NCBI GenBank assembly: GCA_964494945.1
Contig: CAZBTX010000001.1
Location: 3,088 to 67,087 of the forward strand
Direction of reading: 5' to 3'
DNA from: an uncultured Candidatus Saccharibacteria bacterium
GTDB taxonomy: Bacteria; Patescibacteriota; Minisyncoccia; Sungbacterales; JACQCQ01
Length of the DNA: 64,000 nt
Position 1 is the first letter of the stretch. The number at the start of each line of letters is the position of its first letter. This document shows, piece by piece, positions 129 to 47,617 of this stretch. A program made the translations under genes and the position numbers. Below the pieces are notes generated by a model that saw only the letters and a list, made by a program, of their open reading frames with translations, was not told where the DNA came from and searched no databases.

Positions 129-190
129 TTCACGATCTTGAACGGCGACCCGCCTTCGTTAAAACTTCGGCGGACAAGTAAATGCGTGAA

Positions 191-217
191 CCCCCACACC
201 AAAATTTGGTGTGGGGG
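191..217. repeat. Perfect hairpin CCCCCACACC-aaaattt-GGTGTGGGGG, related to the CCCCACACC-terminus repeat family. Possibly the terminator of the upstream gene.
   Basis: 10-bp perfect inverted repeat with a 7-nt loop, read directly. The same arm sequence forms the ends of the elements at 1248, 6461, 8035 and 14357. Confidence 0.5.
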
Positions 218-310
218 TAGAGCGCGGAGCAAAGAATTTTATTGGACCTAGGTCACAGGCCTGCCTGCCGGTAGGCAGGCTCGATTCCACGCACCGGAGC
301 CATCCTTTAC

Positions 311-1247: not shown

Positions 1248-1360
1248 TATTTATCCCCACACCTTCCTGAATACCCTGCGGTCTTGCCGCGAGGATGAAG
1301 GGCGGATTCAAATTTTTCCCGCGGGGTTCAATGCCCAGTGAGAATGTGTGGGGATAAATA
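1248..1360. mobile_element. MITE-like palindromic element, long form of about 113 bp, with TATTTATCCCCACAC / GTGTGGGGATAAATA terminal inverted repeats
   Basis: 15-bp perfect terminal inverted repeats. The internal sequence is about 85% identical to the copy at 14357-14470 (CCTTCCYGAATACCC..CGGTCTTGCYGCGRGGATGAAGGGCGGATTCARAT). Confidence 0.65.
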
Positions 1361-6389: not shown

Positions 6390-7667
6390 ATGAGGAAGTT
6401 GTTATTTATTGCATTGATCGGCATCGGACTTTTACTGGCGCTCGCTTGGGGCGTTGCCTTTTATCCCCACACCTTCCCGAATACTCCGTGGGAGGGTGTG
6501 GGGATTTATTGGGAAAACTTGCGCGGAGCGTGGTTTGCGGTAAAACCCGCCGCACCCAAAATAACTGAAAAAGAGACCGTTTCGGAACTTCCTTTAAAAT
6601 TACCGGCAGACCTTTCCATTTCGTTATTCGCCAAAGACCTTCCCGGCGTTAGAGTCATGGCGCGTGACTCTTTTGGTAACTTTTGGGTAAGTCAGACATC
6701 AGAGGGCGTGATCTCATTTTTGGAAATGGAGGGCGGTAAAGTAAAAAGCCAAAGTATAATACTCAAGAATTTGAAAAAGCCGCACGGTCTGGCCTTTGAC
6801 CCCGAAAATCCTTTTACGCTTTACTTTGCGGAAGAAGATAAGCTCTCAAAAGTGACGGTCTATCCCAACGGGCTCCCACAAAAAATCGCTGATTTGCCGT
6901 CGGGTAGTGGGCACTTTACGCGGACCATTGGATTTGGGCCGGACGGGCGGCTTTATGTTTCCATTGGGTCTTCCTGCAATGTTTGCCGCGAATCTGATAA
7001 CCGGCGCGCCGCTATTTATTCTATGAAAAAAGATGGGTCGGACTTTAAATTATATGCCAGTGGTCTTCGTAACGCCGTATTTTTTACTTGGGCGCAGGAC
7101 GGAAAATTATGGGCGACGGATAACGGTCGTGATCTACTGGGGGATGATCTGCCGCCGGATGAAATCAACATCATTGAATCCGGCAAGAATTATGGTTGGC
7201 CGATTTGCTACGGCAAAAACATACATGACACCGTCTTTGATAAAAATACTTATATTCGCAATCCGTGCATGGAACCGTTTGAAACACCATCTTATATAGA
7301 CCTGCAGGCGCACTCGGCGGCCCTGGGACTCGCTTTTGTACCCCAAAACGGTTGGCCGGAGGATTATCAGGGTAACCTGATAGTGGCTTATCACGGCTCC
7401 TGGAATCGGACCGAGCCGACTGGGTATAAAGTAGTGCGTGTTAAATTGAATTCTTCGGGCGAATTTTTAGGCATTGAAGATTTCATTACCGGTTGGCTCC
7501 GACGCTCCGACGAGAAGTCAGGAGTCGGAGTCCCGACCGTAACGTCGGGACTGACTTCATCGGGCAAAGTTCTAGGCCGTCCGGTTGGAGTTTTCGCCGA
7601 GCCGGGTGGGGTGGTCTACATTACAGACGATAAAGCGGGGATAATATATAAGATAAGCAGAAAATAA
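6390..7667 (+). CDS. PQQ-dependent soluble sugar (glucose/sorbosone) dehydrogenase-like beta-propeller protein
   Basis: Signal peptide. Overall similarity to the YliI/sGDH-type pattern (GPDGRLYVSIG, WATDNGRD, NYGWP). Confidence 0.7.
   Translation: MRKLLFIALIGIGLLLALAWGVAFYPHTFPNTPWEGVGIYWENLRGAWFAVKPAAPKITEKETVSELPLKLPADLSISLFAKDLPGVRVMARDSFGNFWVSQTSEGVISFLEMEGGKVKSQSIILKNLKKPHGLAFDPENPFTLYFAEEDKLSKVTVYPNGLPQKIADLPSGSGHFTRTIGFGPDGRLYVSIGSSCNVCRESDNRRAAIYSMKKDGSDFKLYASGLRNAVFFTWAQDGKLWATDNGRDLLGDDLPPDEINIIESGKNYGWPICYGKNIHDTVFDKNTYIRNPCMEPFETPSYIDLQAHSAALGLAFVPQNGWPEDYQGNLIVAYHGSWNRTEPTGYKVVRVKLNSSGEFLGIEDFITGWLRRSDEKSGVGVPTVTSGLTSSGKVLGRPVGVFAEPGGVVYITDDKAGIIYKISRK
6461..6508. mobile_element. 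Short copy of the ATCCCCACACC-terminus MITE-like family, inserted in-frame near the 5' end of the PQQ-dehydrogenase gene
   Basis: ATCCCCACACCTTCCCGAATACTCCGTGGGAGGGTGTGGGGAT. The same termini and CTTCCCGAATAC core as the copies at 1248 and 14357. It encodes YPHTFPNTPWEGVGIYW within the ORF. Confidence 0.6.
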
Positions 7668-8392
7668 TGGCGGATAACCAATATAACGAGGCCTATATTA
7701 AAGCCAAAGAGCAACAGGCGGAAAAGCACAAGGAGGTTTCTCACGAAAGATCAAAAGACCGCTTGCCGCCCGGCCAAGTACTTACTAAAACCTTTCCCAT
7801 TCTGGATTTGGGTATTAGGCCGACTTTAGACCGTTATCCCAAGTGGACACTGGAGGTTAAGGGTAACGTGGAAAATCCGATCGTATTATCCATTGATGAA
7901 GTGAAAAAAATGGCCGATACCGATATTACGGCTGATTTTCATTGTGTGACGCGTTGGTCGCGGTATGACCTGCATTGGTCGGGGGTCCCATTTTCTAAGA
8001 TCATGGAGCTTGTAAAACCTCGTCTTTCCGCAAACCCCCACACCAAACGAGAACAGCTGGAGAGTATGAATTTTAGTAGTGTCAGTCCTCGTTCTGGTGT
8101 GGGGGTAAAATTCATAGTTTTCCATTCTTTTGACAAATATACGACGAACGTAACTTTGGATGACGTAATGCAAAAGAACGTTATTGTGGCGACAAAACTG
8201 GAAGGCGGCGAAATACCGCCGGAGCACGGCGGGCCGATCAGGATGATACTGCCGCATCTTTACGGCTGGAAATCGGCCAAATTCTTAACGGCGATTGAAT
8301 TTGTGGACGAAGATAAACCCGGTTTTTGGGAGGTACGGGGATACTCCAATAGAGCGCGCCCCTGGATTGAGGAGAGATACAGTGGCGATTAA
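7667..8392 (+). CDS. Sulfite-oxidase-family molybdopterin oxidoreductase (YedY/MsrP-like catalytic subunit)
   Basis: Motifs typical of the SO family, including the CVTRWS cysteine-ligand region. Its ATG overlaps the stop of the upstream gene (TAATG). Confidence 0.7.
   Translation: MADNQYNEAYIKAKEQQAEKHKEVSHERSKDRLPPGQVLTKTFPILDLGIRPTLDRYPKWTLEVKGNVENPIVLSIDEVKKMADTDITADFHCVTRWSRYDLHWSGVPFSKIMELVKPRLSANPHTKREQLESMNFSSVSPRSGVGVKFIVFHSFDKYTTNVTLDDVMQKNVIVATKLEGGEIPPEHGGPIRMILPHLYGWKSAKFLTAIEFVDEDKPGFWEVRGYSNRARPWIEERYSGD
8035..8105. mobile_element. 71-bp palindromic element CCCCCACACCAAACGAGAAC...GTTCTGGTGTGGGGG, inserted in-frame inside the YedY-like gene
   Basis: 15-bp near-perfect inverted repeat whose outer arms equal the 191-217 hairpin and the MITE termini. 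It encodes NPHTKREQLESMNFSSVSPRSGVGVK in the ORF. Confidence 0.55.
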
Positions 8393-12390: not shown

Positions 12391-13284
12391 TCAGTATTGG
12401 TAAGTGTCCACGATGAGGCTGTTTTCGTCGTAGAGGGTTATAATATCGTGGAGTTCGCGCCAGAGTTTTTCGGTGCGGTTTAGATATAGATGCCAGGTGT
12501 TCCTGTAAAAATCTGAAGCATTCCTGAAGTCGTCAACGCACCCCCGGTAATGCATATGATTGGCGATAAATTGGGTACATTCGTCTCCGATGCCGATGGT
12601 GGCCTCACCGGAAATAACGGGTATGCGGCAGGTCGAAAATTTACTTTCTAAAAAGCGCAGGCACACGTCTTTTAAGCTGACAAGTTTGGCAATATCGATC
12701 CGCGGGCACGATTCCGAAAGCCGCGGCGAGAAATCGTTATTTTCGTTAAGGTATCCCGTGCAGGCGTTCTCCCGAAATCCAACATTGACAGGACTGGAAC
12801 CCGTGTGGATGAAAGCTTCTTGATTAGGTTCAAATTTTACCACCGACTTATCAGACACTAACGGGATCAGCGCACCCTCTCCTAAGAGATAACGCTTACC
12901 CTGGGTGTTCGCGAGGGACCAATTGTGAATGTAGATCGGCCCTTTCTTATTCCCCGTATTGTAAATTCTCACGTATTGATCGCGAATCCCGCCGTAGGCC
13001 GCGCCGCTGACGCTTGAAATTTTAACGCTGCCGCGGAAGCCAGAGATGCCAGATTCTGGTTTTAGCACCGGTGCCGGCGGTTCATAACCCGTGCCGCCTG
13101 CCGGAGCCGGTTCTTTAACTCCAGCCGGTGATGAGCCCCAAAACCCGCCGCCGGGTCCGGAGGCGCGGGGGCCGGGAGATAAGAAGTTAAATCCCAAAGT
13201 CCCTTCTTTCACGATGCCAAATCCGCCGGTTGCGATTACCGCGACCGCCACCAAAAGCCCAAAAATTAGAAATACTTTGTCCAT
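12391..13284 (-). CDS. Secreted/membrane-anchored protein with a lamin-tail (LTD)-like domain
   Basis: SVSGAAYGGIRDQYVRIYNTGNKKGPIYIHNWSL is an LTD-like pattern. N-terminal TM anchor. Confidence 0.45.
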   Translation of the reverse strand: MDKVFLIFGLLVAVAVIATGGFGIVKEGTLGFNFLSPGPRASGPGGGFWGSSPAGVKEPAPAGGTGYEPPAPVLKPESGISGFRGSVKISSVSGAAYGGIRDQYVRIYNTGNKKGPIYIHNWSLANTQGKRYLLGEGALIPLVSDKSVVKFEPNQEAFIHTGSSPVNVGFRENACTGYLNENNDFSPRLSESCPRIDIAKLVSLKDVCLRFLESKFSTCRIPVISGEATIGIGDECTQFIANHMHYRGCVDDFRNASDFYRNTWHLYLNRTEKLWRELHDIITLYDENSLIVDTYQY

Positions 13285-13394
13285 CCCGTTAGAAGCAGAT
13301 CGCGATCAGAGTCGCTTTCTGCTTATAATAATCTCTTAATAATGCCATAATTTATTCTTTAAACTTCTTTCGCGATCGCGGCTTCTAACGGGAT
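13283..13394. repeat. Palindromic element of about 110 bp with ATCCCGTTAGAAGC / GCTTCTAACGGGAT termini (repeat family 2)
   Basis: 14-bp perfect terminal inverted repeat. Its arms CCGTTAGAAGCAGATCGCGATCAGAGTCGCTTTCTGC recur in inverted orientation at 17531-17644. Confidence 0.6.
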
Positions 13395-13413: not shown

Positions 13414-14484
13414 TTATAGAAGCACCGCGCCGATGATATCAGGATGTCCGCGTATGAATTCTTCGGCGGTCATCGACTTTCCGCCCGCGGGGCATAATCG
13501 GTCAACGGCCAACGCTCCCTTCGCGGTTTCCACCGCCATAGGCGTTCCCTCGGCTCGCCAGACGGTGCCGGGCGGATTCACCCGAGTACTCGGTATGGCG
13601 CGAGCGGCTTCTATCTTCAAGCGTAGCGCATCACGGTCCCTCTGCCAAAAACAGTGCGATTCGGGCCAGCGGAGGTAAGCCCTGATCTGGCGTTCCAACT
13701 CTTCGGCGGTTTTATCCCACGTGAGCTTGCCGTCCTCTTTTTTCAGTATTTTCGTGTAGGTCGCGAACGCATGGTCTTGCGGAGCCGGTTCTAAACTCCC
13801 TTGAAGCCAGGCCGGAATGGCATTTTTGGCGCACTCCGCGCCAAGTTTCGCCAGCCGCTTTGAAAGCGTTTGTCCGGTATCCCGGTCTTCAATCCGGAGT
13901 CGCGCTTGGGTTAAAATCGGGCCGTGGTCCATTTCTTTGTCCATTAGCATAATAGTGACACCGGTCTCTTTTTCTCCCGCCAGAATAGCGCTTTCAATCG
14001 GGGAAGCGCCGCGATACTTGGGAAGGAGCGACGGATGGATATTCAAAGCGCCGTGCCTGGGAATGCCGAGAATCTCATCGGGAATTATCTTGCCGTAAGC
14101 CGCCACTAAGAAGAGGTCGGAGTCTAGATCGCGCAACATTCTCACAAACTCTGGGTCGCGCAAGGTTTCCGGCTGGAAGATTTTAATACCGTGATTTAGG
14201 GCGAATTCTTTCACGGGGGTAGGGGATAATATTTGGGCTCTCCCCACCGGACGTGGGGGGTTGGTAACTACCGCTACTACCTCCATTCCCGCATTCAAGA
14301 CCTCCGAAAGCGCCGGCACGGAGAATTCAGGGGTGCCCCAAAAAACAATGCGCGGGTTTTTATCCCCACACCTTCCCGAATACCCCACGGTCTTGCTGCG
14401 GGGATGAAGGGCGGATTCAGATCCTTCTCGCGGAGTATAATACCCCGTGGGAAGGTGTGGGGATTTATTAGAAACGTGTTTCAT
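13414..14484 (-). CDS. fmt: Methionyl-tRNA formyltransferase. The six-frame ORF carries an N-terminal extension encoded by the MITE-like element; the functional start is probably near 14350.
   Basis: Core PRIVFWGTPEFSVPALSEVL...HPSLLPKYRGASPI is the Fmt pattern. No ATG or GTG lies between the MITE and the conserved RIVF segment. Confidence 0.85.
   Translation of the reverse strand: MKHVSNKSPHLPTGYYTPREGSESALHPRSKTVGYSGRCGDKNPRIVFWGTPEFSVPALSEVLNAGMEVVAVVTNPPRPVGRAQILSPTPVKEFALNHGIKIFQPETLRDPEFVRMLRDLDSDLFLVAAYGKIIPDEILGIPRHGALNIHPSLLPKYRGASPIESAILAGEKETGVTIMLMDKEMDHGPILTQARLRIEDRDTGQTLSKRLAKLGAECAKNAIPAWLQGSLEPAPQDHAFATYTKILKKEDGKLTWDKTAEELERQIRAYLRWPESHCFWQRDRDALRLKIEAARAIPSTRVNPPGTVWRAEGTPMAVETAKGALAVDRLCPAGGKSMTAEEFIRGHPDIIGAVLL
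14357..14470. mobile_element. MITE-like element, long form of 114 bp, exactly filling the def/fmt junction
   Basis: TTTTTATCCCCACACCTTCCC...GGGAAGGTGTGGGGATTTATTA is a 16-20-bp terminal inverted repeat. The interior is about 85% identical to 1248-1360. Confidence 0.65.
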
Positions 14485-15001
14485 CGGGTGTTATGTCAAA
14501 GAGGCGGACTACCTTGTCAATGAAAAGAATGCCGTCCAGATGGTCCAACTCATGCTGGATGACGCGCGCGAAAAATTTGGAAGCGCCGTGCGAAAATTTT
14601 TTGCCGTTCTCATCATAGGCCTCCACTTCAATTTTTTCCGGCCGCCCGACGATGCCGTATTTGCCGGGCACCGAAAGGCATCCCTCCACGAACTCGGTCT
14701 TTTTTGTTGAGAACTTTTTAATGACAGGATTGATATAAACGTATTGGGCCCAATTTTCGCGCTCCCGCCGCTTAGGGTCTTCAATGAATTTTGCTTCTTC
14801 GGAAACGACAAAAACGCGAAGTGGTATGCCGATTTGCGGCGCGGCAATGCCGATGCCGTCTCGGCTGGCAGAGAGTGCCGCTTTCATGTTTTCAATTTTT
14901 TGAGCAACTTTGGGTGAACCGAGGGAGGCCAAGTCCACCTCTTGAGAACGTCGGCGGAGCAGGGGATTGGGTTCGGTCAATATACGCGGTGTCATGGGCA
15001 T
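14468..15001 (-). CDS. def: Peptide deformylase
   Basis: GIGIAAPQIG, EGCLS and HELDH motifs. Confidence 0.9.
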   Translation of the reverse strand: MPMTPRILTEPNPLLRRRSQEVDLASLGSPKVAQKIENMKAALSASRDGIGIAAPQIGIPLRVFVVSEEAKFIEDPKRRERENWAQYVYINPVIKKFSTKKTEFVEGCLSVPGKYGIVGRPEKIEVEAYDENGKKFSHGASKFFARVIQHELDHLDGILFIDKVVRLFDITPDETRF

Positions 15002-15003
15002 AA

Positions 15004-17013
15004 TTAAAGCAATGATTCCGGCCCCACGTCAATGAGAACCTCCGCGGGCACCGTTTCGGCGATCAGGCGCTTGGCTGATAGCGATTCGCCGGCGCTTATT
15101 ATTTTTACCAGGATATGAAAAATAAAAACGCCCTTTTTCTTCTCTATGTAAGCAGGATAGGGGTTGGTTATTTCTACGATGCCGCGTCCCAGCTGATGTT
15201 CCAGGACCTGCAATAAGCTGTAAAGTTTTTTAACTCGGGAGAGAGCTTTTTCGCGTGATGTATCATTGACAGTTAATTTTATCAGTTCTCCGTAAGGGGG
15301 GTAATTGAATTTTTTTCTTTCTTTTAATTCTTTCTCGGCGAAATATTCAAAACTGCCGTGGAAGAGGTCCGAAAGCACTTCCGGTTCCTTGGCAAAACTT
15401 TGCAGAATGAAGATCTTAAGGGCGAGAGCGCGCACCACGGATAGAATTCTGAAAAGCCGCTCGTTTTGGGCAAAGTCGGGGAGCGATAGCGCCGTGTCAA
15501 TGCTGACCACGGCCGCCAAGTCAAAGGTCGGGAGTTCTATGCCCGAGATGGCAAATTCCGTGCCGACGGCGATGTAAGAACTAAGTTTGTTTAATTTATC
15601 GGAAATGAGCTTTATGTTATCCGCTTTTTTTGATTCTCCCAAACTTACGGGAATAATGGGCATCTCCGGAAACATTTTCTTCAGTTCTTTTACCACGCGT
15701 TCAACGCCGATGCCGTAGAATTTCAGACGGTGTGAGCCGCATTCGCGGCAGACATCGGGCGGACTCTGCTTGGCGCCGCAGTGATGACAGAGAAGGGTAG
15801 ATTCGGACATGGATTCCTGCGTATGGTATACAAGCGGCACGGCGCAGTCGGTACACTTGAAAATATAACCGCATTCTTGGCACAAAATGAAGGGGGCGAA
15901 CCCTTTGCGGTTTACGAACAAGAACGCACGGCCCGCGTCATGTACCAGAGTTCGCAGTTTATCTTTTAGGACTTGAGAAAATATCACAAACCCTTTGGCT
16001 TCCTTAATTTCTTTTTGCATGTCGGCGAATATGGAAACAGCCAACGTGCGGGGTGACGGGAGTATCACGAGGCGTTTGTTGGGTCCGCCGTCCTTGACCA
16101 GTTCGTAAGCGCTAAGCGAGGGAGGCGCTCCGGCCATTATAAGAGTGCTGCCGTGCATGGCTTGGAGTTTCTTGGCCACATCCCGAACGTGATATTTAGG
16201 GGCCTGATCCCAGGATTTATGAGCAGGAGAGCCGTCGTCATCAATTATGACGAGGCCTAGATTAATAAAAGGCAGAAATAGCGCGGCCCTGGTGCCGACA
16301 ATCGCCATGGATTCACCCGTTCTTATCCTATGCCAAGTTTCTCGCAGTCCCTTTTTAGGCAAAACACTGCTGAAATTACGTATCTTATCGGAAGTCAGTG
16401 CGCCAGATATTTCATTAAATAGAGTTTCGCTCTTTGTAATTTCGGGCGCTATGACCAAAACCTGTTCGGACCTGGCTAGAGTTTCCACTACGGCACTTTT
16501 ATATCTTTCTATTGCTCCCGGTCCGATTATGACCTCGGTTCTTGGAATATTGATAGCTGGGCTTTCTAGCCGGGCACCCCAATGATTTATATCACCGGCA
16601 GTAATGAACGAAGGTATCAGCATTTTCAAAATGACGCCAGGCGAAGTTAGGTAATATCGGGATAGCCACCACAACATTTCCACATCACGAGAGCTAAATA
16701 CTGGTTCCTCTTTTAGAACTTTTTTTATTTTTTTCAGCGTAAAAGAAGCGGAACGCAAATTTTGCTTGGCGTGCCGCACCGGGGAGGACTTTATTACAAG
16801 GCCCAAGAGTTTTTGACGACTTATCTCAATTTCAACCAACACCCCCGTGGCCAAGGACGAAGCATGGAAATATGAAAATGACTCCGGCAGCGATTTAGGC
16901 AAACGTGCCAGGGGTATGACTTCAATTAGAAACATAGCTAGGCGTATGATAGCAGAAACCAAGTCTTGCGGCAGTAGGTTATAAGGTAAAACTGACGCGA
17001 GGAGGAAAATCAT
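15004..17013 (-). CDS. priA: Primosomal protein N' (PriA helicase)
   Basis: DEAH-type helicase motifs plus a Cys4-Cys4 zinc-binding insert (CQECG...CTDC...CHHCG...CRECG). Confidence 0.85.
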   Translation of the reverse strand: MIFLLASVLPYNLLPQDLVSAIIRLAMFLIEVIPLARLPKSLPESFSYFHASSLATGVLVEIEISRQKLLGLVIKSSPVRHAKQNLRSASFTLKKIKKVLKEEPVFSSRDVEMLWWLSRYYLTSPGVILKMLIPSFITAGDINHWGARLESPAINIPRTEVIIGPGAIERYKSAVVETLARSEQVLVIAPEITKSETLFNEISGALTSDKIRNFSSVLPKKGLRETWHRIRTGESMAIVGTRAALFLPFINLGLVIIDDDGSPAHKSWDQAPKYHVRDVAKKLQAMHGSTLIMAGAPPSLSAYELVKDGGPNKRLVILPSPRTLAVSIFADMQKEIKEAKGFVIFSQVLKDKLRTLVHDAGRAFLFVNRKGFAPFILCQECGYIFKCTDCAVPLVYHTQESMSESTLLCHHCGAKQSPPDVCRECGSHRLKFYGIGVERVVKELKKMFPEMPIIPVSLGESKKADNIKLISDKLNKLSSYIAVGTEFAISGIELPTFDLAAVVSIDTALSLPDFAQNERLFRILSVVRALALKIFILQSFAKEPEVLSDLFHGSFEYFAEKELKERKKFNYPPYGELIKLTVNDTSREKALSRVKKLYSLLQVLEHQLGRGIVEITNPYPAYIEKKKGVFIFHILVKIISAGESLSAKRLIAETVPAEVLIDVGPESLL

Positions 17014-17459: not shown

Positions 17460-17530
17460 TATTGTGCGGGACCCTTTTGTATTTAGATTGACGCATACAT
17501 ATTTCTTTGAGAAGATAGCTTTGATGGAGT

Positions 17531-17644
17531 CCCGTTAGAAGCCGCGATCGCGGTTCGCGGGTTTAAATAGCAATGAAGCTAGAACTAATAAAACAATCTA
17601 ATTCGCAGAAAGCGACTCCGATCGCGATCTGCTTCTAACGGGAT
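17531..17644. repeat. Second copy of repeat family 2 (CCCGTTAGAAGC termini), inverted relative to 13283-13394
   Basis: GCAGAAAGCGACTCCGATCGCGATCTGCTTCTAACGGG is the reverse complement of the left arm of the first copy. ATGGAG lies directly outside both ends. Confidence 0.6.
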
Positions 17645-18842
17645 GGAGCCCGCGGGACGCACAAAAAGATTGATGATAGCGTTGGCGTTTATTGTCGTCG
17701 GCGCTTCTTTCTTTTTGGGGATCGGGGTGGGGTACATCAACCGCCCGGCGGTGGAAAAAGTGGCGGGAATTTTAAATAAAGAAACGGCCAAGCCCGCTGA
17801 AGTGGATTTCAACCAGTTCTGGGACGTCTGGCGCCGCATTGAGGAGAGATACGTGGATAAAGATAAAATTGAGAGAGGTAAACTGATCGACGGAGCGATT
17901 GCCGGTATGGTCAAGGCCGTAGGTGACCCTTATACCGTTTACCTGCCGCCGCAGGAATCCAAAGAATTTCAAGCCGAGATCAAGGGCAGTTTTGAGGGTA
18001 TCGGCGCGGAGATCGGCATCCGCAAAAATATTTTGACGATCATAGCGCCGCTTAAGAATTCACCCGCGGAAAAATCGGGTTTGAAAGCAGGTGATAAAAT
18101 TTTAAAGATTGGAGACACCATAACCGCCGACTTATCCGTGGAAGAAGCCGTGCGTCTGATACGCGGACCCAAAGGTACTAAAGTTAAACTCACTATATTT
18201 CGCGATAACGACGGCGAACCGAAAGAGATATTTGTCACGCGTGACGTTATCGTGGTTCCCAACATTAAAACGGAATTGAAACCCGGTGGCGTTTTCTACA
18301 TACAGCTTTCTCATTTTTCCGAAAATTCATCCAGCGATTTCAAAAAAGCCGTGGCGGAGTTCCAGCGTTCGGGGTCAAACAAGCTGATTTTGGACCTTAG
18401 GAACAATCCCGGCGGCTTTTTGACGGCCGCAGTTGATATCGCCAGCTGGTTTTTGCCGGCCGGAGACACGGTGGTTACGGAACATTGGAGCAACAGCAAA
18501 GACGAGGTTTATCGGAGCAAGGGATATAAAGTTCTCGAGTCAACACCGGTCGTAGTTTTAGTAAATCAAGGGTCGGCTTCGGCCTCCGAGATCGTGGCCG
18601 GTGCTCTACGCGACAAAAGAGGAGCGAAACTCGTTGGCGAAAAAACTTTCGGCAAAGGGTCCGTGCAGGAGCTCCAGGATCTGGCCAAGGGCGCTTCGCT
18701 GAAAATTACCATCGCCAAGTGGTTAACCCCCTCCGGCAAATCCATAAACGAATCGGGGCTGGAGCCGGATTTCGCGGTCGCGGCGACCACGACGCCGGAT
18801 ATTGACCCGGTGCTGGAAAAGGGTCTGGGACTCCTAAGATAA
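17643..18842 (+). CDS. Carboxy-terminal processing protease (S41 family, CtpA-like). The start is probably the ATG at 17673.
   Basis: PDZ domain and S41 catalytic region (GSASASEIVAGAL...KTFGKGSVQ). Confidence 0.85.
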   Translation: MEPAGRTKRLMIALAFIVVGASFFLGIGVGYINRPAVEKVAGILNKETAKPAEVDFNQFWDVWRRIEERYVDKDKIERGKLIDGAIAGMVKAVGDPYTVYLPPQESKEFQAEIKGSFEGIGAEIGIRKNILTIIAPLKNSPAEKSGLKAGDKILKIGDTITADLSVEEAVRLIRGPKGTKVKLTIFRDNDGEPKEIFVTRDVIVVPNIKTELKPGGVFYIQLSHFSENSSSDFKKAVAEFQRSGSNKLILDLRNNPGGFLTAAVDIASWFLPAGDTVVTEHWSNSKDEVYRSKGYKVLESTPVVVLVNQGSASASEIVAGALRDKRGAKLVGEKTFGKGSVQELQDLAKGASLKITIAKWLTPSGKSINESGLEPDFAVAATTTPDIDPVLEKGLGLLR

Positions 18843-21480: not shown

Positions 21481-21551
21481 CCTCCCATAGCTCAATGGCA
21501 GAGCAGTTGCCTTTTAAGCAATTGACCTAGGTTCGATTCCTAGTGGGAGGA
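21481..21551 (+). tRNA. tRNA-Lys (anticodon UUU)
   Basis: Manual cloverleaf: acceptor CCTCCCA/TGGGAGG, D-stem GCTC/GAGC, anticodon loop CTTTTAA, T-arm CTAGG-TTCGATT-CCTAG. No encoded CCA. Confidence 0.85.
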
Positions 21552-21559
21552 CAGTATAG

Positions 21560-21596
21560 GGGCCATTAGCATAGTGGCAGTGTCCCGACTTACATT
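21560..21596 (+). pseudogene. 5' half of a tRNA-Ala gene (acceptor, D-arm and part of the anticodon arm), truncated in the anticodon region
   Basis: GGGCCATTAGCATAGTGGCAGTGTCCCGACTTACAT matches 28 of 36 positions of the 5' half of the intact tRNA-Ala at 21970. Its acceptor strand GGGCCAT pairs with ATGGTCC of the 3' remnant at 22055-22095, with a G3:U70 pair. Confidence 0.55.
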
Positions 21597-21684
21597 AATA
21601 AGTTTAATCATAAGAAGTCGCGGATGCTCGATTTTCTTAAGAAAATCGAGCATCCGGTTTGTCCCGATTTATACAAATTTTTAA

Positions 21685-21930
21685 ATGTTTTATCTTTATG
21701 TTTTAAAATCAATTCAATTTGGGACCTACTATATTGGTAGTTGTAAAGATTTGCAGATTCGGCTAAGACAGCATAATAGAGGCAAGGTGAAGTCAACAAA
21801 GTTTCGAAAGCCATGGGAACTAGTACATTCAGAACGATTTATGACTTTATCTAAAGCTCGATCAAGAGAACTAGAACTCAAATCTTTAAAAAAGCGTATC
21901 GCATTGGAAAGGTTGATAAAACATTTCTAA
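21685..21930 (+). CDS. Small GIY-YIG nuclease-domain protein (COG2827/UPF0213-like, YhbQ-type)
   Basis: FYLYVLKS...GTYYIGSCKDLQIRLRQHNRG fits the GIY-(x10)-YIG motif plus the conserved R and HN/E region. It sits between tRNA-gene halves. Confidence 0.7.
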   Translation: MFYLYVLKSIQFGTYYIGSCKDLQIRLRQHNRGKVKSTKFRKPWELVHSERFMTLSKARSRELELKSLKKRIALERLIKHF

Positions 21931-21969
21931 AATTTGTGAAATAAATCGAAGATTCTCGACGGCAGAGGT

Positions 21970-22040
21970 GGGCCCTTAGCTTAGTGGCAGAGCACCCGGT
22001 TTGCATCCGGGAGATAGGAGTTCGATTCTCCTAGGGTCCA
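21970..22040 (+). tRNA. tRNA-Ala (anticodon UGC) embedded in a 13-bp extension of its acceptor stem
   Basis: Manual cloverleaf: G3:U70, anticodon loop TTTGCAT, T-arm AGGAG-TTCGATT-CTCCT. Flanking CGACGGCAGAGGT/ACCTCTGCCGTCG extends the acceptor helix. No encoded CCA. Confidence 0.8.
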
Positions 22041-22054
22041 CCTCTGCCGTCGGA

Positions 22055-40549: not shown

Positions 40550-43500
40550 TTAACTGCTTGGCGTGGAACTGGCGGTGGCAGTGGTGGATGAGGCGGTGTC
40601 GGTGGTTGAGGCAGCGTCAGCTCCGACGCTAGCGTTCGGAGCCCCGACCCCTTCGGGCGTCAGGGTTGTTGTCGGCGTTGTGATTGTGGTGTCGGTTGAG
40701 TCGGCAGTCGGCGTGGTGCTGGCCGTGTCTGTCGGCGTGAATGAAGCTATGGGGCTTACGTCCGAGATCGGCGGCAAGCCGTCGCAATTTCCCGAAATGG
40801 TGCTGACGGCGCCACGCTCTATGAATACGCAATATGCCGCTTTGGTGGCGCGATCAAAAAGCGTAATGCCGGTCGGGGCTTCAGTAGAGCCGACGGTTAA
40901 GTGGTCGGTTTCGATATACTTCATCGTCATGCGCCCCGTCTCGTCAATTTTCCAAAGGCCGTTTTGCGAGACGATTTGTCCGACTCCCAAGAGGGCATTG
41001 CCGTTTAAGTTCACATCCCCGTAGAAGTTGACATTCACCTTGCCCGTAGTCTGATCCACCGACCAGCCATTAGTCGCTATTCCCTGTTCGCTATTCGCTG
41101 CTAGCTGGGTCGTTCCTTCATCAAGCTTTGAGTAGCCGAGGTTGATGAAAACCAGGATTTTGCCGGTTTTCACCGTCTGGCCGTCGGGAAGTCCGACTTC
41201 GGCGGTGTTTGAAGTCGGACTTCCAACAGTTGAGTCGTCAAAGTTTTCTAGAGCTATACCCACTGTCACGCCGGATACGGTAGCTTTCATGCCTACTCCT
41301 GCAAGCGAGGAGGAAGTTATCCTGTCGCCTATCTTGATGGGGCCGGATTCGGTGGAAACCTTAACGGGAACGCGGCCGTTCAAAGCAACGGGAAGTTTGT
41401 TTATGGTTTCGGGAAGATTCTTTCCTGCCGAGGTAAAATCAGAGTAATTATTTGAGGTGATGCCAAGGAGGTTTGATTGATAAGCGGTAGTGGAACGCTT
41501 AAGTTCGGAAACATATCCCAAGTGAGGCAGGGTGGAACTTGCGCTTCCCTTCTCGTCGCTGGCATAGGTTTCAATCATTTTACTGCCATCTCCCAAAGCC
41601 ACGATCTCGCCGTATTCAATTCCTTGTTCAACCGGATAAAGCTCGGCATAGTCGGCTCCACCGGAAGTGCAGTCGCCGATGCCGCGCAACGCGTCTGCGG
41701 AAAGTTCAGCGCCGCTATAACACATAGCAACGTTAGAAATTTCGTCATCTAGCATGGCCTGCACGGGGTTGCTAGCTGCATTGGCGTCTACTATAAGCCC
41801 ATTAGTCCAGGTGATGGCGTCACCCGCAGTTCCTGATGGCGCCGTGCGAAGAGTTATATCGGCGCCGCTATAATAGATTTGTTGCGCGGGATTTGTAATC
41901 TTATATCTCCAACTTCCGTCGTAGTATATATTTGCGCCAAGTCCCCCATCAACGCTACCAATATTCGTGAGCGAAAGCGTTCTTCCCGCCGAACTATTCC
42001 CAATAACGAGCGCTGGTATAGTCCATCCTGGATCTGAAGGTACGACACCGAGAAATATTTGCTGGTCGGCATTCGGGAGTTGCAAGGTGGGGCCGGCAGT
42101 GTTCACTGTGAGAATGCCATCAGTATCTATTGTCATCCGATAAGCCGCCGCAGTTATATCTCGAATCTGAAATAACCCTGTATCTTGTACACCTACAATC
42201 CAATCCCTACTTGCTTTATTGGAAAATCGTAAACCTACGCTGTTGGTTGCGTCCTGATTCCGTATATTTAATTGAGGCGTACTCGAGTCCAAACTCGACA
42301 TGCCAGAACCAGAAACAGCCAGCACTCCAAACGGACTCGTCGTCCCGATGCCGACGTTGCCGCTTCCATCAATCCTCATCTTTTCTGCCATAGTTGACGC
42401 TGAATTTTGAGTGAAAAACGTAAGTGATCCTGCCGTGCCTCCGACGGCCTCTCGCATCAATCCTATTAGAGCTGCTGGATTACCATTACCAGCGGCGCGA
42501 AACTTAATTTTAGAGCCAGCCCCGACTACGTTAGAGTCGGACAAAAGGTTCAATTCCGTATTATTGTCGTCATAGTATGAAGCCCCGGTCGCTATAGTCG
42601 AGCTTGAAATGTTGAATGTTGCACTCCCCGTATCGCCAGCCGCACTAGTTCCAACCAAAATCCTGCCGTCGCTTCTTATTCGCATACGCTCAGTCGAAAT
42701 ATTAGCGTTATCGGCACGTGTAAAAAACGCAAGGATTCCACCTCGTTTGGTTGCCGTTGTCCCGCTGAGATTAGAGCTGATTCGCGCCACCTCTTTGGAG
42801 AAAGTTCCTCCAGACTGGGCATCTGCGTGAAAAGAAATAACTCCAACATTATCCGCGTCAGCATCAGCGGTAAGGTTGCCGAGCCGCAGGATTCCGTAAT
42901 CGTTCGTAGCATCAAGCACACTAAAGAACGAATTTCCTGAACCATAAGGACTGGTGGTAATTAGCGATGCATCAGCAGCATCACCACTTCCAAAAATACC
43001 GTTACCCACAACCGATAACTTGGAGCCCGGACTCGTCGTCCCGATGCCGACGTTGCCGTTGGGAAAGTTAACGCTCGAAATCGTCGCCCCACTGCGCTTC
43101 ACATTCAGCCAAGAATTGGCCGTGGCAAGGGAATCATTTAATGCTCGAAAATCAAATTCGCCCGCCGTCAGCATCCCTGGCCCAAAATCCCAAATCTTGT
43201 TGTCAGCGGTGGCATTGGTGTTATTCATCACAATGCCGGTGGTCGCCCCCTGGATTTCCAACTTGCCATCATGCCCCGGCCCGATACGCGCCGTGCCTCC
43301 GATCTGCACATCCGCTGTACCAGAACCAGCCGCTTTCAAGATATGCAAGCCAGAGGCCGGATTCGTTGTCCCGATGCCGACGTTGCCGGATGTTTGCTGA
43401 ACCACGAATTGATTTGTCCCCACAGTAAAGCCGCCCGTAGCTATTGTAGAAGTAGCGGTAGTAGAAGTGGCAGAGAAGTTGTTGGAAACAATTTGGCCGG

Positions 43501-46500
43501 TGACTGAAAGCATGGCATAAGGAGATGTCGTCCCGATGCCGACGTTGGCTCCGCTTCCGAGGATCAACGAGTTGGATTGAGTTACCACGGCGTTGTAACC
43601 GATGGCCGTCGCGTTGGTGAGGTTGGCGGAGGTAAGACCGAAGGTACTATCGTCTTGAGCGCCAATAAACGTATTGGTTGACCCCGTGGTATTGGCACGC
43701 CCGGCGTTTCTGCCGACCGCTACGTTATTGCCGGCGGTGGTATTTAGCAACGAGTATATGCCAATCGTAGTGTTCTGGATGCCGCTGATGTTATTAAACA
43801 GACTATCAAAACCAACAGCCGTATTTTCACTGCCACCGGTGTTTAGCTTCATCGCCTCAAATCCTACGGCGGTATTAGAACTATTAGTATTGCTCGTTAG
43901 TGCCGAGCTCCCTAAAGCCGTGTTATTACTGCCGGAAACATTGGCGGCAAGGGCTCTGTCGCCAACAGCCGTGTTGTCGTCCCCCGTAGTGTTTAAGGTA
44001 AGGGCGTTATAGCCAACGGCGGTGAGCGAGGTGGCCGCAGTGGTGAGCGAGGCAAGGGCATTAGTGCCAACCGCAGTATCTCTCTGGGAGTCCGTGTCCA
44101 TGGTCAAGTTCCCCGCGCTGACCCCAACAAAAGTGTTGTTAGTGCCGAAAGTATGCAGAAGCGTATTTGCAGCCGACTTGATAATGCCTACGGTGGCTGT
44201 GGTGGCCGGTAGCGTGATCGTTCCCGTTGCCGTGATATTAGCAACCGAGGTGATATTTCCGGAAATCAAGGCATTCCCCTGCACCGAGAGGGTTGTTGCC
44301 GGACTCGTCGTCCCGATGCCGACGTTGCCTGAGTTTTTTACTATGAACCTGTTCCCGTCGGTCCCATCATCACTGGATAGCATGAAAAGATCGGATGCTC
44401 CTGCTGATGCACTGACCTCCAAAAGCGCATCTGGATTTATGTCTCCGATGCCGATGTTGCCGCCCTCAAGAACAGAGAACACCTCGTCGTTCGTGCCTGC
44501 ATAAAATCTTGCCCTGTCGGCATCAAATCTTAACGTTGCCACTGTGGTGCCCCCGCCTTCAATACTCCACCCCGTACTTTGAGATATGAAACTGAGGCGT
44601 ATTTGCGCATCAGCGTTTGCTGAATCAAATGCTGTACAACTGGAAACGCCGCAATCAACACTCACTCTGCCACCGACAATATCCAGTTTTTGACTCGGAT
44701 TCGCCGTCCCAATTCCCACATTCCCGGAATTCAGAACCGTGAAGAGCGTCGTGGTCGCTGAAGCCGTTGACGAAGCGATGGTCAAGAGAGGTTGAGTGGA
44801 ATCGGTCGCAAGATTCGCGATGGAAAGTTTTGAATAAGGCGAGGTGGTGCCAATGCCGACGTTGCCAGAGTTTACAATCCGCATCGCCTCGGTGGCTCCG
44901 TTGTTGCCGACTAAGAATTTAATGAAGTCAGTGGTGCCAACGCCCGAGGTGGACTGTAAAGATAGTGAAGAGCCAACTGCGCTCCCGCCGATCAAAAGTG
45001 GGTCAATGATGGAGGTGCCGAAGTAGCCAGTTTTAATGAGATTGGTGGATTTTCCGATATCGGAGCCATTGTTGGCCTCCGGATAAAATCCGGATGAGTT
45101 GTCAATGTTCCAACGAGTGCTGCCCATGTTTTCAGATAACTGGAGAATTCCGCCACCCGCGCCGATGTTTAAGTTCTGCGTGCCTGGGCTTCCCGCTCTC
45201 TCAATGCCCAGAAAGTGACTGCCGTCGCTGTTTCTGGAGTTTATGCTGAACCGAACGTAGTTGGAGGCATTGGTGTAGGTTGAATATATATTCAGGCCCT
45301 GTTCTTGCGTGCCGTTTTGGAGCGCAACGCCTTTGACTAAGTTTCCTCCAGAGCTTGAGAATTGTTCCTTTTGCAAAAGCACATCCGCGGTTCCCGCGCC
45401 GTTGTCCCAGCCGATGATACTTGAGGAAGCCACGGTGAGCGCTTGGCTTGGATTAGAAATCCTAATCCCCACATTCCCGGAAGCATCCACAATGAAGGAG
45501 GTGGCGGTTGAGGAGCCAATGGCGAACGCGGTCTGGGTGGTTCCGGCCGGGGACTGAATGGAGAGCGTGGCAAAGGGCGAAGAAGTGCCAATACCCACTC
45601 TCCCGAAAGGCGAGGATGAAGTGTCCAAAGAAAGCAGAGGATTGGCGGCTGTGGTGCTTGTCGCCAGAGACCAGGCATTGACCGTCAGGTTGGGAATGGT
45701 GCTTGTCGCCCGATTGTTGTAGACAATGTTCCCGGAGTTGATGGAGAAAAGGTCTCCGATGGCATCACCCACATATAAAGAACCCTCCACCAGCAAAGAG
45801 GAGGCGGAAGTGGAGGCCACGGTGACTGAACCGGCCGAGGTCAGGGAATTGACATACACATCCCCCTCGGCATCCACCAGGAACTTGGTAGAGCCATTGA
45901 CCGCCAGACCCAGGAGATTGGTATCGGAGACGGCTGATGCGGGATTGATATACAGGGAAGAGTTGGACACCGCCGCATTGGCCACTCCCGTGGCCCAGGC
46001 GGGAAAGGTGTGGGGCGTTACGGGGACATAGGTAGCCACCACCTGGCCGGAACTGGTGGTGGTGGCCGAGACGGATAGAGTTCCGTTATTAGCCGAGAAC
46101 ACCCCGCCCACCGAGAGCGCCCCGTGGATCTGGGTGTCTCCCGATACTTCAAAGTTGCCGGAGGTGGTGGTGGAGACACCCACCCCCAAGCCCCCGGTGA
46201 GATATGTATGGCCGGATACGGAAAGAAGCTGGGAGGGTGAAGAAGTGCCGATGCCCACTTTATTCCCCCCAAAATCAACCACCAGAGTATCGGTGTCTAT
46301 GGTCAGTCCTCCCGCCATGGTGGAAGTGGAGGTGGTATCGGTCAGGGTCAATTTAGAGGCGGTAACTCCTGCTGTTACCGTGAGCGACCCCGTGCTCACC
46401 ATAAGATCACCGGTTCTCACGGTGGCGCCGTTATAAATGTCCAGGGAGTCCAGCTTGTCTATTCTCTGCGAGACGGTCACCATCTGGAGGGAAGAGCCGG

Positions 46501-47617
46501 CCACGCGGGAAGTATTATTCAAGTCCCCCCGCACGGTGAAGAGGTCATGGGAGAGGGAGGCCAGTTCCACTCTGATTTTGTTGTTTTCCTGCTGAAAGAG
46601 TTGAGAGAGCTCTTGCTTAAGACCGGCGGTGTCCGTTATGACCAGTTGTCTTTCTATGATGGTGGAGGGTTGCTCTTGCTTTTCGGCAGATGCGGCTGGT
46701 TTCTCCGGCTCTTGGCCGTTTAGCGTAAATTCAACTGTTCCCGATGGCAGGGTCAGCGGCTCGCGAATTCTAGAGCCCAAAAGCAAATTGGAGAAGAAAG
46801 GCCGGATGTTCTTGAAGAGTCCCGCGATGTTGCCTTCGCTTTGGATGATACGCGCGACATTCTGCCCGGTGTCTTGGGTGGCGGTGAGGCCGGATTGATA
46901 GAAATTCAGGGAGGCCTCGGTTAGAGAATTTCCCAGCGAATCAATTAGGTTGCTTTTTAAAGCGGCGGGATTTTTAAAATAGCCGCCAAGGCCGGTTAGA
47001 ATGAGATTTGCCGTATCCGGCGTGCCCGAAGTGATATCGGAGATGCTTAGCCGATTTTGGGTTTCAGCCGGTAAAATTTGGCGATGGGATGTTGAAACAG
47101 CTAAAGAACGCAAGTGCTCCCCGGCGTCTTTTGCCAATTGAGCCAGGTCTGCTCGGGCATTGAACCCAATCCCGATAGCCGCCGCCAGCAGAATTAGCGC
47201 GCCAACCAGCTTAAAATTTGATACGTATCTTAATCTATCTAAATATTCAGTTAAATCGTATCTTTTTTCACTTTTAAGAATATGTTCTTTAATTCTATCG
47301 TCATTAAGTATTGCCAGCAGGTTCTCCTTTTTAACAGCCAACAGCGTTTCCGAAGGTCTGTAATATTTTTTAGCTTCTCTTCCGTCACGAGCAGTTAAAA
47401 TTTGGCTCCCAGCCGGTTCCGCGGGCTCAATATAGGCCCCTTTTGCCTTTTTCTTACGCCCGGAGAGGTAATCAAGTAGATCTTTTTCCGCAACGAACCA
47501 GTCGCGACCAACTTTCACTCCCCTTAACGATTTGCGGTTGATAAGAACTCTTAAATAATCCTGGTGAACACCGGAAAATTTTGCCGCCGCTTTGAGTCCG
47601 ATCAATTTTTGCTCCAT
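40550..47617 (-). CDS. Giant 2355-aa surface protein: an N-terminal excisionase/MerR-like HTH, one TM helix, then about 2200 aa of Gly/Thr/Ser/Asn-rich beta-repeat sequence with at least 11 GNVGIGTTSP-type repeats
   Basis: One uninterrupted ORF. N-terminal LKAAAKFSGVHQDYLRVLINRKSLRGVKVGRDWFV. TM segment LVGALILLAAAIGIGF. Recurrent GNVGIGTTSPxxxLxVxG motif. C-terminal Thr/Ser/Ala-rich tail. Confidence 0.75.
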   Translation of the reverse strand: MEQKLIGLKAAAKFSGVHQDYLRVLINRKSLRGVKVGRDWFVAEKDLLDYLSGRKKKAKGAYIEPAEPAGSQILTARDGREAKKYYRPSETLLAVKKENLLAILNDDRIKEHILKSEKRYDLTEYLDRLRYVSNFKLVGALILLAAAIGIGFNARADLAQLAKDAGEHLRSLAVSTSHRQILPAETQNRLSISDITSGTPDTANLILTGLGGYFKNPAALKSNLIDSLGNSLTEASLNFYQSGLTATQDTGQNVARIIQSEGNIAGLFKNIRPFFSNLLLGSRIREPLTLPSGTVEFTLNGQEPEKPAASAEKQEQPSTIIERQLVITDTAGLKQELSQLFQQENNKIRVELASLSHDLFTVRGDLNNTSRVAGSSLQMVTVSQRIDKLDSLDIYNGATVRTGDLMVSTGSLTVTAGVTASKLTLTDTTSTSTMAGGLTIDTDTLVVDFGGNKVGIGTSSPSQLLSVSGHTYLTGGLGVGVSTTTSGNFEVSGDTQIHGALSVGGVFSANNGTLSVSATTTSSGQVVATYVPVTPHTFPAWATGVANAAVSNSSLYINPASAVSDTNLLGLAVNGSTKFLVDAEGDVYVNSLTSAGSVTVASTSASSLLVEGSLYVGDAIGDLFSINSGNIVYNNRATSTIPNLTVNAWSLATSTTAANPLLSLDTSSSPFGRVGIGTSSPFATLSIQSPAGTTQTAFAIGSSTATSFIVDASGNVGIRISNPSQALTVASSSIIGWDNGAGTADVLLQKEQFSSSGGNLVKGVALQNGTQEQGLNIYSTYTNASNYVRFSINSRNSDGSHFLGIERAGSPGTQNLNIGAGGGILQLSENMGSTRWNIDNSSGFYPEANNGSDIGKSTNLIKTGYFGTSIIDPLLIGGSAVGSSLSLQSTSGVGTTDFIKFLVGNNGATEAMRIVNSGNVGIGTTSPYSKLSIANLATDSTQPLLTIASSTASATTTLFTVLNSGNVGIGTANPSQKLDIVGGRVSVDCGVSSCTAFDSANADAQIRLSFISQSTGWSIEGGGTTVATLRFDADRARFYAGTNDEVFSVLEGGNIGIGDINPDALLEVSASAGASDLFMLSSDDGTDGNRFIVKNSGNVGIGTTSPATTLSVQGNALISGNITSVANITATGTITLPATTATVGIIKSAANTLLHTFGTNNTFVGVSAGNLTMDTDSQRDTAVGTNALASLTTAATSLTAVGYNALTLNTTGDDNTAVGDRALAANVSGSNNTALGSSALTSNTNSSNTAVGFEAMKLNTGGSENTAVGFDSLFNNISGIQNTTIGIYSLLNTTAGNNVAVGRNAGRANTTGSTNTFIGAQDDSTFGLTSANLTNATAIGYNAVVTQSNSLILGSGANVGIGTTSPYAMLSVTGQIVSNNFSATSTTATSTIATGGFTVGTNQFVVQQTSGNVGIGTTNPASGLHILKAAGSGTADVQIGGTARIGPGHDGKLEIQGATTGIVMNNTNATADNKIWDFGPGMLTAGEFDFRALNDSLATANSWLNVKRSGATISSVNFPNGNVGIGTTSPGSKLSVVGNGIFGSGDAADASLITTSPYGSGNSFFSVLDATNDYGILRLGNLTADADADNVGVISFHADAQSGGTFSKEVARISSNLSGTTATKRGGILAFFTRADNANISTERMRIRSDGRILVGTSAAGDTGSATFNISSSTIATGASYYDDNNTELNLLSDSNVVGAGSKIKFRAAGNGNPAALIGLMREAVGGTAGSLTFFTQNSASTMAEKMRIDGSGNVGIGTTSPFGVLAVSGSGMSSLDSSTPQLNIRNQDATNSVGLRFSNKASRDWIVGVQDTGLFQIRDITAAAYRMTIDTDGILTVNTAGPTLQLPNADQQIFLGVVPSDPGWTIPALVIGNSSAGRTLSLTNIGSVDGGLGANIYYDGSWRYKITNPAQQIYYSGADITLRTAPSGTAGDAITWTNGLIVDANAASNPVQAMLDDEISNVAMCYSGAELSADALRGIGDCTSGGADYAELYPVEQGIEYGEIVALGDGSKMIETYASDEKGSASSTLPHLGYVSELKRSTTAYQSNLLGITSNNYSDFTSAGKNLPETINKLPVALNGRVPVKVSTESGPIKIGDRITSSSLAGVGMKATVSGVTVGIALENFDDSTVGSPTSNTAEVGLPDGQTVKTGKILVFINLGYSKLDEGTTQLAANSEQGIATNGWSVDQTTGKVNVNFYGDVNLNGNALLGVGQIVSQNGLWKIDETGRMTMKYIETDHLTVGSTEAPTGITLFDRATKAAYCVFIERGAVSTISGNCDGLPPISDVSPIASFTPTDTASTTPTADSTDTTITTPTTTLTPEGVGAPNASVGADAASTTDTASSTTATASSTPSS

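Follow-up and report, generated by a model that had tools for sequence, protein, structure and literature searches.

Rickettsia palindromic elements (RPEs) are multicopy sequences of ~100-150 bp that are found in frame in unrelated genes, housekeeping genes included, and whose host proteins survive their presence (PMC10969869). The element considered here is a palindrome at the junction of def and fmt, which encode peptide deformylase and methionyl-tRNA formyltransferase (Fmt), in a 64-kb stretch of DNA (referred to as the window, whose coordinates are used throughout) from a member of the Candidate Phyla Radiation (CPR, or Patescibacteria); the genes of the locus are all encoded on the minus strand. 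Like RPEs, the family to which it belongs is palindromic and many-copied and adds a peptide in frame, apparently without destroying the host protein, a likeness of behaviour: a sequence relationship to RPE families is not expected, and membership is not claimed. Unlike RPEs, it resides in CPR hosts, has sharp 16-nt terminal inverted repeats (TIRs) and a TTTAT flank, extends over many phylum-level lineages as opposed to one genus, and has most of its copies outside long open reading frames (ORFs). [quoted passage not shown] It differs from Correia elements in its TIR sequence, in a 5-nt TTTAT-type flank instead of TA and in having no predicted promoter or terminator activity on the operon strand; moreover, Correia elements are mostly intergenic or disruptive, whereas the CPR family has in-frame copies. 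The GC clusters of yeast mitochondria and the byp elements of Magnusiomyces are likewise short GC-rich palindromes that lie in coding sequence and are flanked by duplicated codons, but byp elements are bypassed and often break the frame, whereas the coding copies in CPR genomes all keep it, which points to read-through.

The element lies in frame close to the 5' end of fmt, and Fmt probably retains its ordinary start codon (ATG 14484) while carrying 35 additional, repeat-encoded residues by virtue of an in-frame insertion. The two 16-nt TIR arms are 100% complementary, and the TIR motif ATCCCCACACCTTCCC is found seven times in the window, with 0.24 matches expected. Two copies of the direct repeat ATAAA border the element at a spacing of 105 nt, corresponding to 35 codons. 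On the mRNA strand, the junction reads GAT GAA ACA CGT TTC TAA TAA ATCCCCACACCTTCCC...GGGAAGGTGTGGGGAT AAAAACCCGCGC ATT GTT TTT TGG. An initial annotation of the window had described a MITE-like element that fills the def/fmt junction up to the conserved Fmt core, which agrees with the perfect TIRs and the enrichment of their motif, and had placed the end of def at 14468, in accordance with the ORF list (stop codon TAA 14470-14468). The size it gave to the element (114 bp, 14357-14470) has to be reduced to 103 bp as defined by the TIRs, or 105 bp between the direct repeats. Folded as RNA, the 114-nt stretch is predicted to reach -56 kcal/mol (z = -6.5) on either strand. When the whole window was searched with the Rfam covariance models, no family reached the gathering score, and the locus gave only noise at E <= 10. 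No promoter-like site was predicted on the operon strand of the element, and two weak terminator-like hits were within chance.

In the fmt frame, a stop codon (14493-14491) is followed by ATG 14484-14482, GTG 14388-14386 and ATT 14349-14347. The ATG is located in the 3' end of def, outside the element, with a 17-nt overlap of the two genes (ATGAAACACGTTTCTAA). Deletion of the 105 nt between the ATAAA repeats yields ATG AAA CAC GTT TCT AAT AAA AAC CCG CGC ATT GTT TTT TGG, giving TTTCTAATAAAAACCCGCGCATTG as the reconstructed empty junction and MKHVSNKNPRIVFWGTPEF as the reconstructed Fmt N-terminus before insertion, with nine residues preceding the conserved Arg. The corresponding number is mostly 5-12 in the 19 closest homologues (alignment A1) and 2-13 in solved Fmts. 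Read through the element, the fmt ORF translates as ...SPHLPTGYYTPREGSESALHPRSKTVGYSGRCGDKNPRIVFWGTPEF, and the product of ATG 14484 would start with the leader MKHVSNKSPHLPTGYY..., which includes the peptides MKHVSNKSPHLPTGYYTPR and EGSESALHPR. The leader comprises 44 residues, of which 35 derive from the insertion. Accordingly, ATG 14484 contradicts the proposal that fmt depends on the element for its only in-frame start, and the in-frame GTG within the element had been overlooked. It does hold that neither ATG, GTG nor TTG occurs between the element border and the RIVF motif, where the in-frame ATT is present, and that the ORF runs through the element, although the leader had been counted as 45 residues.

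To define the family, one genome per species was scanned for the pattern ATCCCCACACCTTCC-N60-90-GTGTGGGGAT, which returned 37 loci with exact termini. The hosts are metagenome-assembled genomes (MAGs) labelled Saccharibacteria, Falkowbacteria, Sungiibacteriota, Kerfeldbacteria, Nomurabacteria, Liptonbacteria, Kuenenbacteria and Parcubacteria, and one Saccharibacteria MAG (CAYNAP...) contains at least nine near-identical copies. Approximately a quarter of the family copies are situated inside long open frames. Compared with the solved T. maritima TsaD (6n9a), the copies at two loci (L006 and L037) contribute a clean insert of 33 residues, placed between positions 125 and 126; these copies use the same element frame as fmt (SSPHL...GRCGDK), and the Pfam TsaD domain is split at this point. 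In a UvrD-type helicase, another copy (L002) divides the N-terminal domain (Pfam UvrD-helicase) behind the GAGTGKT motif, and further host proteins are a GT2 glycosyltransferase (L009), a PMT_2 membrane protein (L034) and a NUDIX protein (L023). All nine coding copies add a multiple of three nucleotides, whereas just 17 of 30 copies that no long ORF spans belong to this length class, and an insertion length of L+2 would be in keeping with the 3-nt periodicity of the coding copies. Synthesis of these host proteins requires ribosomes to translate the element within their frames, and they therefore provide the best available support for read-through in fmt.

The host protein contains the domains Formyl_trans_N and Formyl_trans_C (PF00551 and PF02911; Pfam), and its residues 45-353 align to residues 6-311 of the solved Fmt 4iqf (E = 3.7e-68). 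On the basis of both domains and the full-length alignment, the host gene is assigned as methionyl-tRNA formyltransferase. In an AlphaFold model calculated from a 20-sequence alignment, the predicted local distance difference test (pLDDT) score averages 86.9, with values above 90 in the core, strand beta-1 at residues 45-50 and values below 50 for residues 1-40; the extra 35 residues are predicted to form a floppy N-terminal tail that leaves the Fmt core intact. The gene order priA-def-fmt-LTD is kept in five relatives, and the C-terminal length of def agrees with that of their def genes. Two of these relatives have a 4-nt overlap of def and fmt, two have a gap of 6-7 nt and one has a distance of 148 nt, so that four of the five show tight coupling; the 17-nt overlap in the window is an ordinary coupled arrangement, and priA and def are likewise spaced closely enough for coupling. 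The 148-nt spacer of the remaining relative (L041:2853-3000) holds two unrelated imperfect palindromes, which indicates that the def/fmt junction was invaded or expanded independently in the clade.

These observations are best accommodated by the following sequence of events. The ancestral fmt would have used ATG 14484 as its start and shared 17 nt with def, so that the target site fell within the first fmt codons. A MITE-like element would then have inserted at an ATAAA target directly after the tandem def stop TAATAA, i.e., after fmt codon 7, adding exactly 105 nt (35 codons) devoid of stop codons in the fmt frame, so that the reading frame would have survived. With both the fmt start and the def stop lying upstream of the insertion, the coupling geometry would be unchanged, so that translational coupling across a structured spacer, an earlier idea, would not be needed. 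Ribosomes would initiate at ATG 14484, either freshly on the unstructured A/U-rich stretch or by re-initiation after def termination 14 nt downstream, and would unwind the hairpin as they translate. The product would be an Fmt with a disordered N-terminal tail, in which a 35-residue insertion precedes strand beta-1 (RIVFWGTPEF). We infer the use of ATG 14484 with read-through of the element, as well as activity of the extended Fmt. The RNA surrounding ATG 14484 (31 nt) is predicted to be unstructured (dG 0). Shine-Dalgarno (SD)-like motifs precede 8 of 48 long ORFs, which is the background rate, and starts mostly follow A/T-rich sequence; initiation in the source organism appears to be largely SD-independent. 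In such an SD-poor genome, the lack of an SD motif before ATG 14484 is normal, and a choice of the fmt start on the basis of SD motifs proved uninformative.

Several points weigh against this account. The insertion event is reconstructed from sequence comparison, as opposed to observed: no empty-site allele was found, a 22-mer of the def-side junction giving 0 matches in metagenome contigs, and the closest Fmt is only 57% identical, which makes a near-isogenic comparison impossible. The use of the fmt start codon is only deduced, and the in-frame GTG 14388 would yield an Fmt of normal length. The hairpin of -56 kcal/mol, which begins 20 nt past the ATG, could impede the first steps of elongation or draw in RNase III. 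Finally, since roughly half of the reading frames of the element are open in any case, an open frame at this locus is no strong evidence of selection. In another homologue (P0100), the long Fmt leader does not stem from the def/fmt palindromic element.

The strongest competitor, which we nevertheless consider unlikely, assumes the same in-frame insertion but has fmt translated from the GTG in the element (14388-14386), giving MGYSGRCGDKNPRIVF... The product would be an Fmt of normal length with the N-terminus (f)MGYSGR..., whose first 11 residues are encoded by the repeat, and the element would then really supply a working start codon for fmt. This GTG is in the fmt frame, and the resulting 12-residue leader fits the lengths found in homologues such as MKERRAQSPKHHRIVFF. 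However, it lies in a GC-rich, paired segment of the predicted fold and follows GC-rich sequence, with neither an SD motif nor the A/U-rich leader that would match the A/T-rich, SD-less context typical of starts in this organism. In addition, ribosomes coming from ATG 14484 would read through it.

Initiation at ATT 14349 is much less probable, be it directly or on a processed mRNA whose hairpin has been cut and whose freed 3' arm, containing GGAAGGUG, is loaded by ribosomes. Long MITE stems are known substrates of RNase III, as established for the Correia elements of Neisseria; the ATT is in frame at the conserved Fmt core, and the 3' arm of the element has an SD-like GAAGGTG. The distance of this motif from the ATT (14-20 nt) is too large, though, and the genome makes no use of SD motifs and has a canonical ATG at hand. 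A start at the ATT would also drop residues before beta-1 that all homologues keep, and copies of the element are found inside essential genes such as TsaD, where cleavage of the stem would be lethal. Translational bypass has precedents in gene 60 of phage T4 and in the byp elements of Magnusiomyces mitochondria. In the present case, peptidyl-tRNA-Lys would leave the codon AAA 14466-14464 and land on AAA 14361-14359, resulting in the ancestral MKHVSNK-NPRIVF, and the putative target duplication does place identical AATAAA/GATAAA codons on either side of a stable hairpin. We regard this as scarcely credible: although the take-off and landing codons match, the stretch between them is in frame and open, with no stop or frameshift that would force a bypass, and the constraint seen in the coding copies (nine of nine open and a multiple of three) would be needless under bypass. 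An assembly artefact, for which the contig break at the repeat in a second MAG could be cited, or a decaying fmt pseudogene has a very low probability, given that a second public assembly (GCA_016181625.1, contig JACOYZ010000021.1; L043) carries the identical element and junction over ~120 nt and that the fmt core is complete, retains every conserved motif and has a confidently predicted fold.

In this second MAG, which stems from the same organism, the contig ends ~123 nt past the fmt-side repeat edge, exactly at the fmt ATG, and the beginning of JACOYZ010000021.1 at this codon explains the 'partial' label on the NCBI entry of the protein. The repeat thus fragments assemblies. Among the three options of the initial annotation, a repeat-encoded leader is best supported, and a non-canonical start or coupling across a structured spacer is unneeded. 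The arrangement, which had been called unusual for an essential coupled gene pair, is unusual for fmt, yet normal for the element family. The positions of all features are listed in Table 1.

Table 1. Genes, candidate start codons, repeats and related palindromes in the 64-kb window.
Feature	Position	Strand	Remarks
Inserted palindromic element	14364..14463		core ~100 nt; 103 nt from TIR to TIR (ATCCCC...GGGGAT), 14362-14464
Terminal inverted repeat arm ATCCCCACACCTTCCC	14362..14377		16 nt
Terminal inverted repeat arm GGGAAGGTGTGGGGAT	14449..14464		16 nt
Direct repeat ATAAA, def-side copy	14464..14468	minus	overlaps last base of def stop
Direct repeat ATAAA, fmt-side copy	14359..14363	minus	
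In-frame ATG, proposed fmt start	14482..14484	minus	14 nt upstream of def stop
In-frame GTG within element	14386..14388	minus	alternative start giving MGYSGRCGDKNPRIVF...
In-frame ATT (Ile46 of RIVF)	14347..14349	minus	non-canonical candidate of the initial annotation
fmt ORF	13414..14484	minus	356 aa when read from ATG 14484; same sequence as NCBI protein MBI2055146.1
def (peptide deformylase) coding sequence	14468..15001	minus	from ORF list; stop TAA 14470-14468
priA	17013..15004	minus	first in the order priA-def-fmt-LTD
LTD-domain gene	12391-13284	minus	comes after fmt
Second long copy	1253..1355		103 nt; no long ORF across
Short 43-nt copy	6463..6505		in frame in ORF 6390-7667 (GSDH-like); encodes FYPHTFPNTPWEGVGIY
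Related palindrome ACCCCCACACC...GGTGTGGGGGT	8034..8106		in frame in ORF 7667-8392 (molybdopterin oxidoreductase domain)
Minimal hairpin ACCCCCACACCAAAATTTGGTGTGGGGGT	190..218		29 nt; same terminal core

We interpret the palindrome at the def/fmt junction as one copy of a MITE-like, non-autonomous mobile element with a wide distribution in CPR/Patescibacteria. It comprises 103 nt without a transposase ORF, its perfect 16-nt TIR recurs in 37 loci, and its copies are multiple and dispersed. Relative to solved homologues, the insertion is clear at TsaD 125/126 and at the Fmt N-terminus. No transposase was detected with Pfam among nine ORFs near copy A of the family. In the manner of RPEs, open insertions are found in frame in Fmt, TsaD, a UvrD-like helicase and GT2, PMT_2, NUDIX and GSDH-like proteins. 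Of 40 copies, oriented according to the sequence of their interior, 33 have the flanks TTT-AT...AT-TTAT; since the TTTAT flank is near-invariant, it may belong to the element itself or represent a target that is preferred. The interior of the family diverges, and two hand-specified inner hairpins are 87.5% paired, compared with ~50% when the partners were slid. These hairpins are kept by compensatory changes, with single pairs being split between alternatives (e.g., AU:11/GC:11). RNAalifold, applied to a MAFFT alignment, recovered only the outer stem. Wobble pairs in the family (56 GT versus 47 AC) display no strand bias, so that an RNA function of one strand is unsupported and a constraint at the DNA level, or one that is strand-symmetric, is indicated. 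In comparison with the IS200/IS605-derived PATEs, the association of the TTTAT flank with internal orientation in 33/40 copies fits, whereas the long perfect TIRs and the lack of wobble strand bias (56 GT/47 AC) do not. An assignment to the RAYT-mobilised REP/BIME sequences was rejected, as the element is 103 nt long, has no GTAG head and is often intragenic.

Including the def/fmt copy, at least three family copies are present in the window. The short copy at 6463-6505 sits directly after the N-terminal hydrophobic segment of the GSDH-like protein. At three of the loci found in other genomes (L035:5617-5703, L006:945-1041 and L037:4486-4582), a minimal CCCC(C/T)ACACC hairpin takes the place of the 103-nt-type centre, and such nested copies indicate that the hairpins insert into one another.

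The terminal core of the family is also found around small nuclease genes. At locus L030, a perfect 18-nt inverted repeat with the core ACCCCCACACC...GGTGTGGGGGT encloses an 81-aa ORF for a GIY-YIG nuclease (PF01541, E = 3.9e-16; Pfam), which consists of the GIY-YIG domain alone. Compact elements of this kind, measuring ~300 bp and containing an ORF of 81-87 aa within perfect inverted repeats that start with (A)CCCCCACACC, were observed at L030:138-456, L007:577-864 and L044-L123. An exact inverted repeat of at least 9 nt tightly surrounds the GIY-YIG ORF in 72 of 80 metagenomic loci, with a span of ~280-320 nt; the repeat contains CCCAC in 42 of the 80, usually as ACCCCCACACC, and the terminal CCCCACACC(TT) core is common to the fmt element. 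Direct repeats of at least 4 nt flank about half of 53 distinct GIY-YIG elements, compared with ~4% in a shuffled control. In resemblance to free-standing GIY-YIG homing endonuclease genes, these elements encode a GIY-YIG-only protein of 81 aa and occur in many genomic contexts; unlike them, they have their ORF bracketed by inverted repeats of 9-24 nt that start with CCCCCACACC, often together with short direct repeats. An ORF placed in tight inverted repeats with flanking direct repeats amounts to a transposon-like architecture.

Two kinds of insertion site recur among the GIY-YIG elements. At L049, L060, L061, L067 and L070, the element is located within a perfect DnaA-box-like 9-mer, as in TGTGGATAA-CCCCCACACC...GGTGTGGGGG-ATAAC, with ATAA/TTAT duplicated. 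The end of the 103-nt element together with its flank (TTATCCCCACA) corresponds to the same 9-mer plus two extra C. A subfamily with the inverted repeat GCCCCTCAC (L089, L091, L094, L101, L111 and L114) is flanked by direct repeats of 7-9 nt that match the 5' end of a tRNA gene, e.g., GGGCCCTTAGCTTAGT, which suggests that this subfamily inserts at tRNA gene starts. The window itself contains a GIY-YIG ORF (21694-21903) in the region 21553-21960, between the genes for tRNA-Lys (21481-21552) and tRNA-Ala (21970-22042). Ahead of this ORF come a stretch similar to the 5' half of a tRNA (~21553-21600) and, after this, a perfect 18+18-nt palindrome (21621-21656); its own inverted repeat (21675-21694 / 21915-21934, 85%) is without the CCCCACACC core.

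The minimal hairpins look like two inverted-repeat arms of a GIY-YIG element joined together, and they are also nested in the 103-nt element (L035, L006 and L037). In viral contigs (IMG/VR), both the long element and the 280-310-nt GIY-YIG form were absent; a hairpin of 27-40 nt (ACCCCCACACC-N-GGTGTGGGGGT) was observed in eight of these contigs (L124-L131). Taken together, the data suggest a single mobile system to which both the hairpin elements and the GIY-YIG mini-elements would belong. No element was found that combines the full ATCCCCACACCTTCCC TIR with an ORF, and the link to the fmt element consists only of the shared 9-11-nt terminal core and of co-occurrence. It is therefore a tentative and rather doubtful proposal that the fmt element is the non-autonomous member of a CPR-wide class whose autonomous form is the ~300-bp GIY-YIG element with CCCCCACACC repeats and target duplications. 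If it were true, a transposon or homing system driven by GIY-YIG nucleases would be at work, whose hairpin derivatives colonise genomes and are tolerated in frame in essential genes.

Two further observations concern the window. Inverted repeats (13280-13393 / 17530-17647; 62 nt, 85%, and 23 nt, 100%) enclose the whole fmt-def-priA block, each arm containing two copies of CGCGATC..GCTTCTAACGGG. The arms are situated upstream of the divergent LTD-domain gene (12391-13284, minus) and of an ORF on the plus strand (17643-18842), and they may represent a shared regulatory leader or an inversion site. A very large ORF of 2355 aa is encoded on the minus strand at 40550-47617.

In the literature, with incomplete coverage, no prior description was found of palindromic elements or MITEs in CPR genomes or of GIY-YIG elements with inverted repeats, and no title on CPR was among the matches listed for the broader GIY-YIG literature. 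The palindromic family appears to be undescribed, whereas the event in fmt is itself of a known, RPE-like type. The apparent lack of a start codon in an essential gene would have an ordinary cause, the 44-residue leader of Fmt being the scar of a mobile element. If the connection to the GIY-YIG elements holds, the family would define a class of mobile element that is both new and very small. The family breaks assemblies, inflates protein lengths and can mislead the calling of start codons, and the element can also serve to trace horizontal exchange between lineages of the CPR. In these small, streamlined genomes, a highly conserved palindromic element is found across phylum-level lineages and in frame in Fmt, TsaD and a UvrD-like helicase, and it thereby parallels the RPE phenomenon of Rickettsia in another group of bacteria with reduced genomes.

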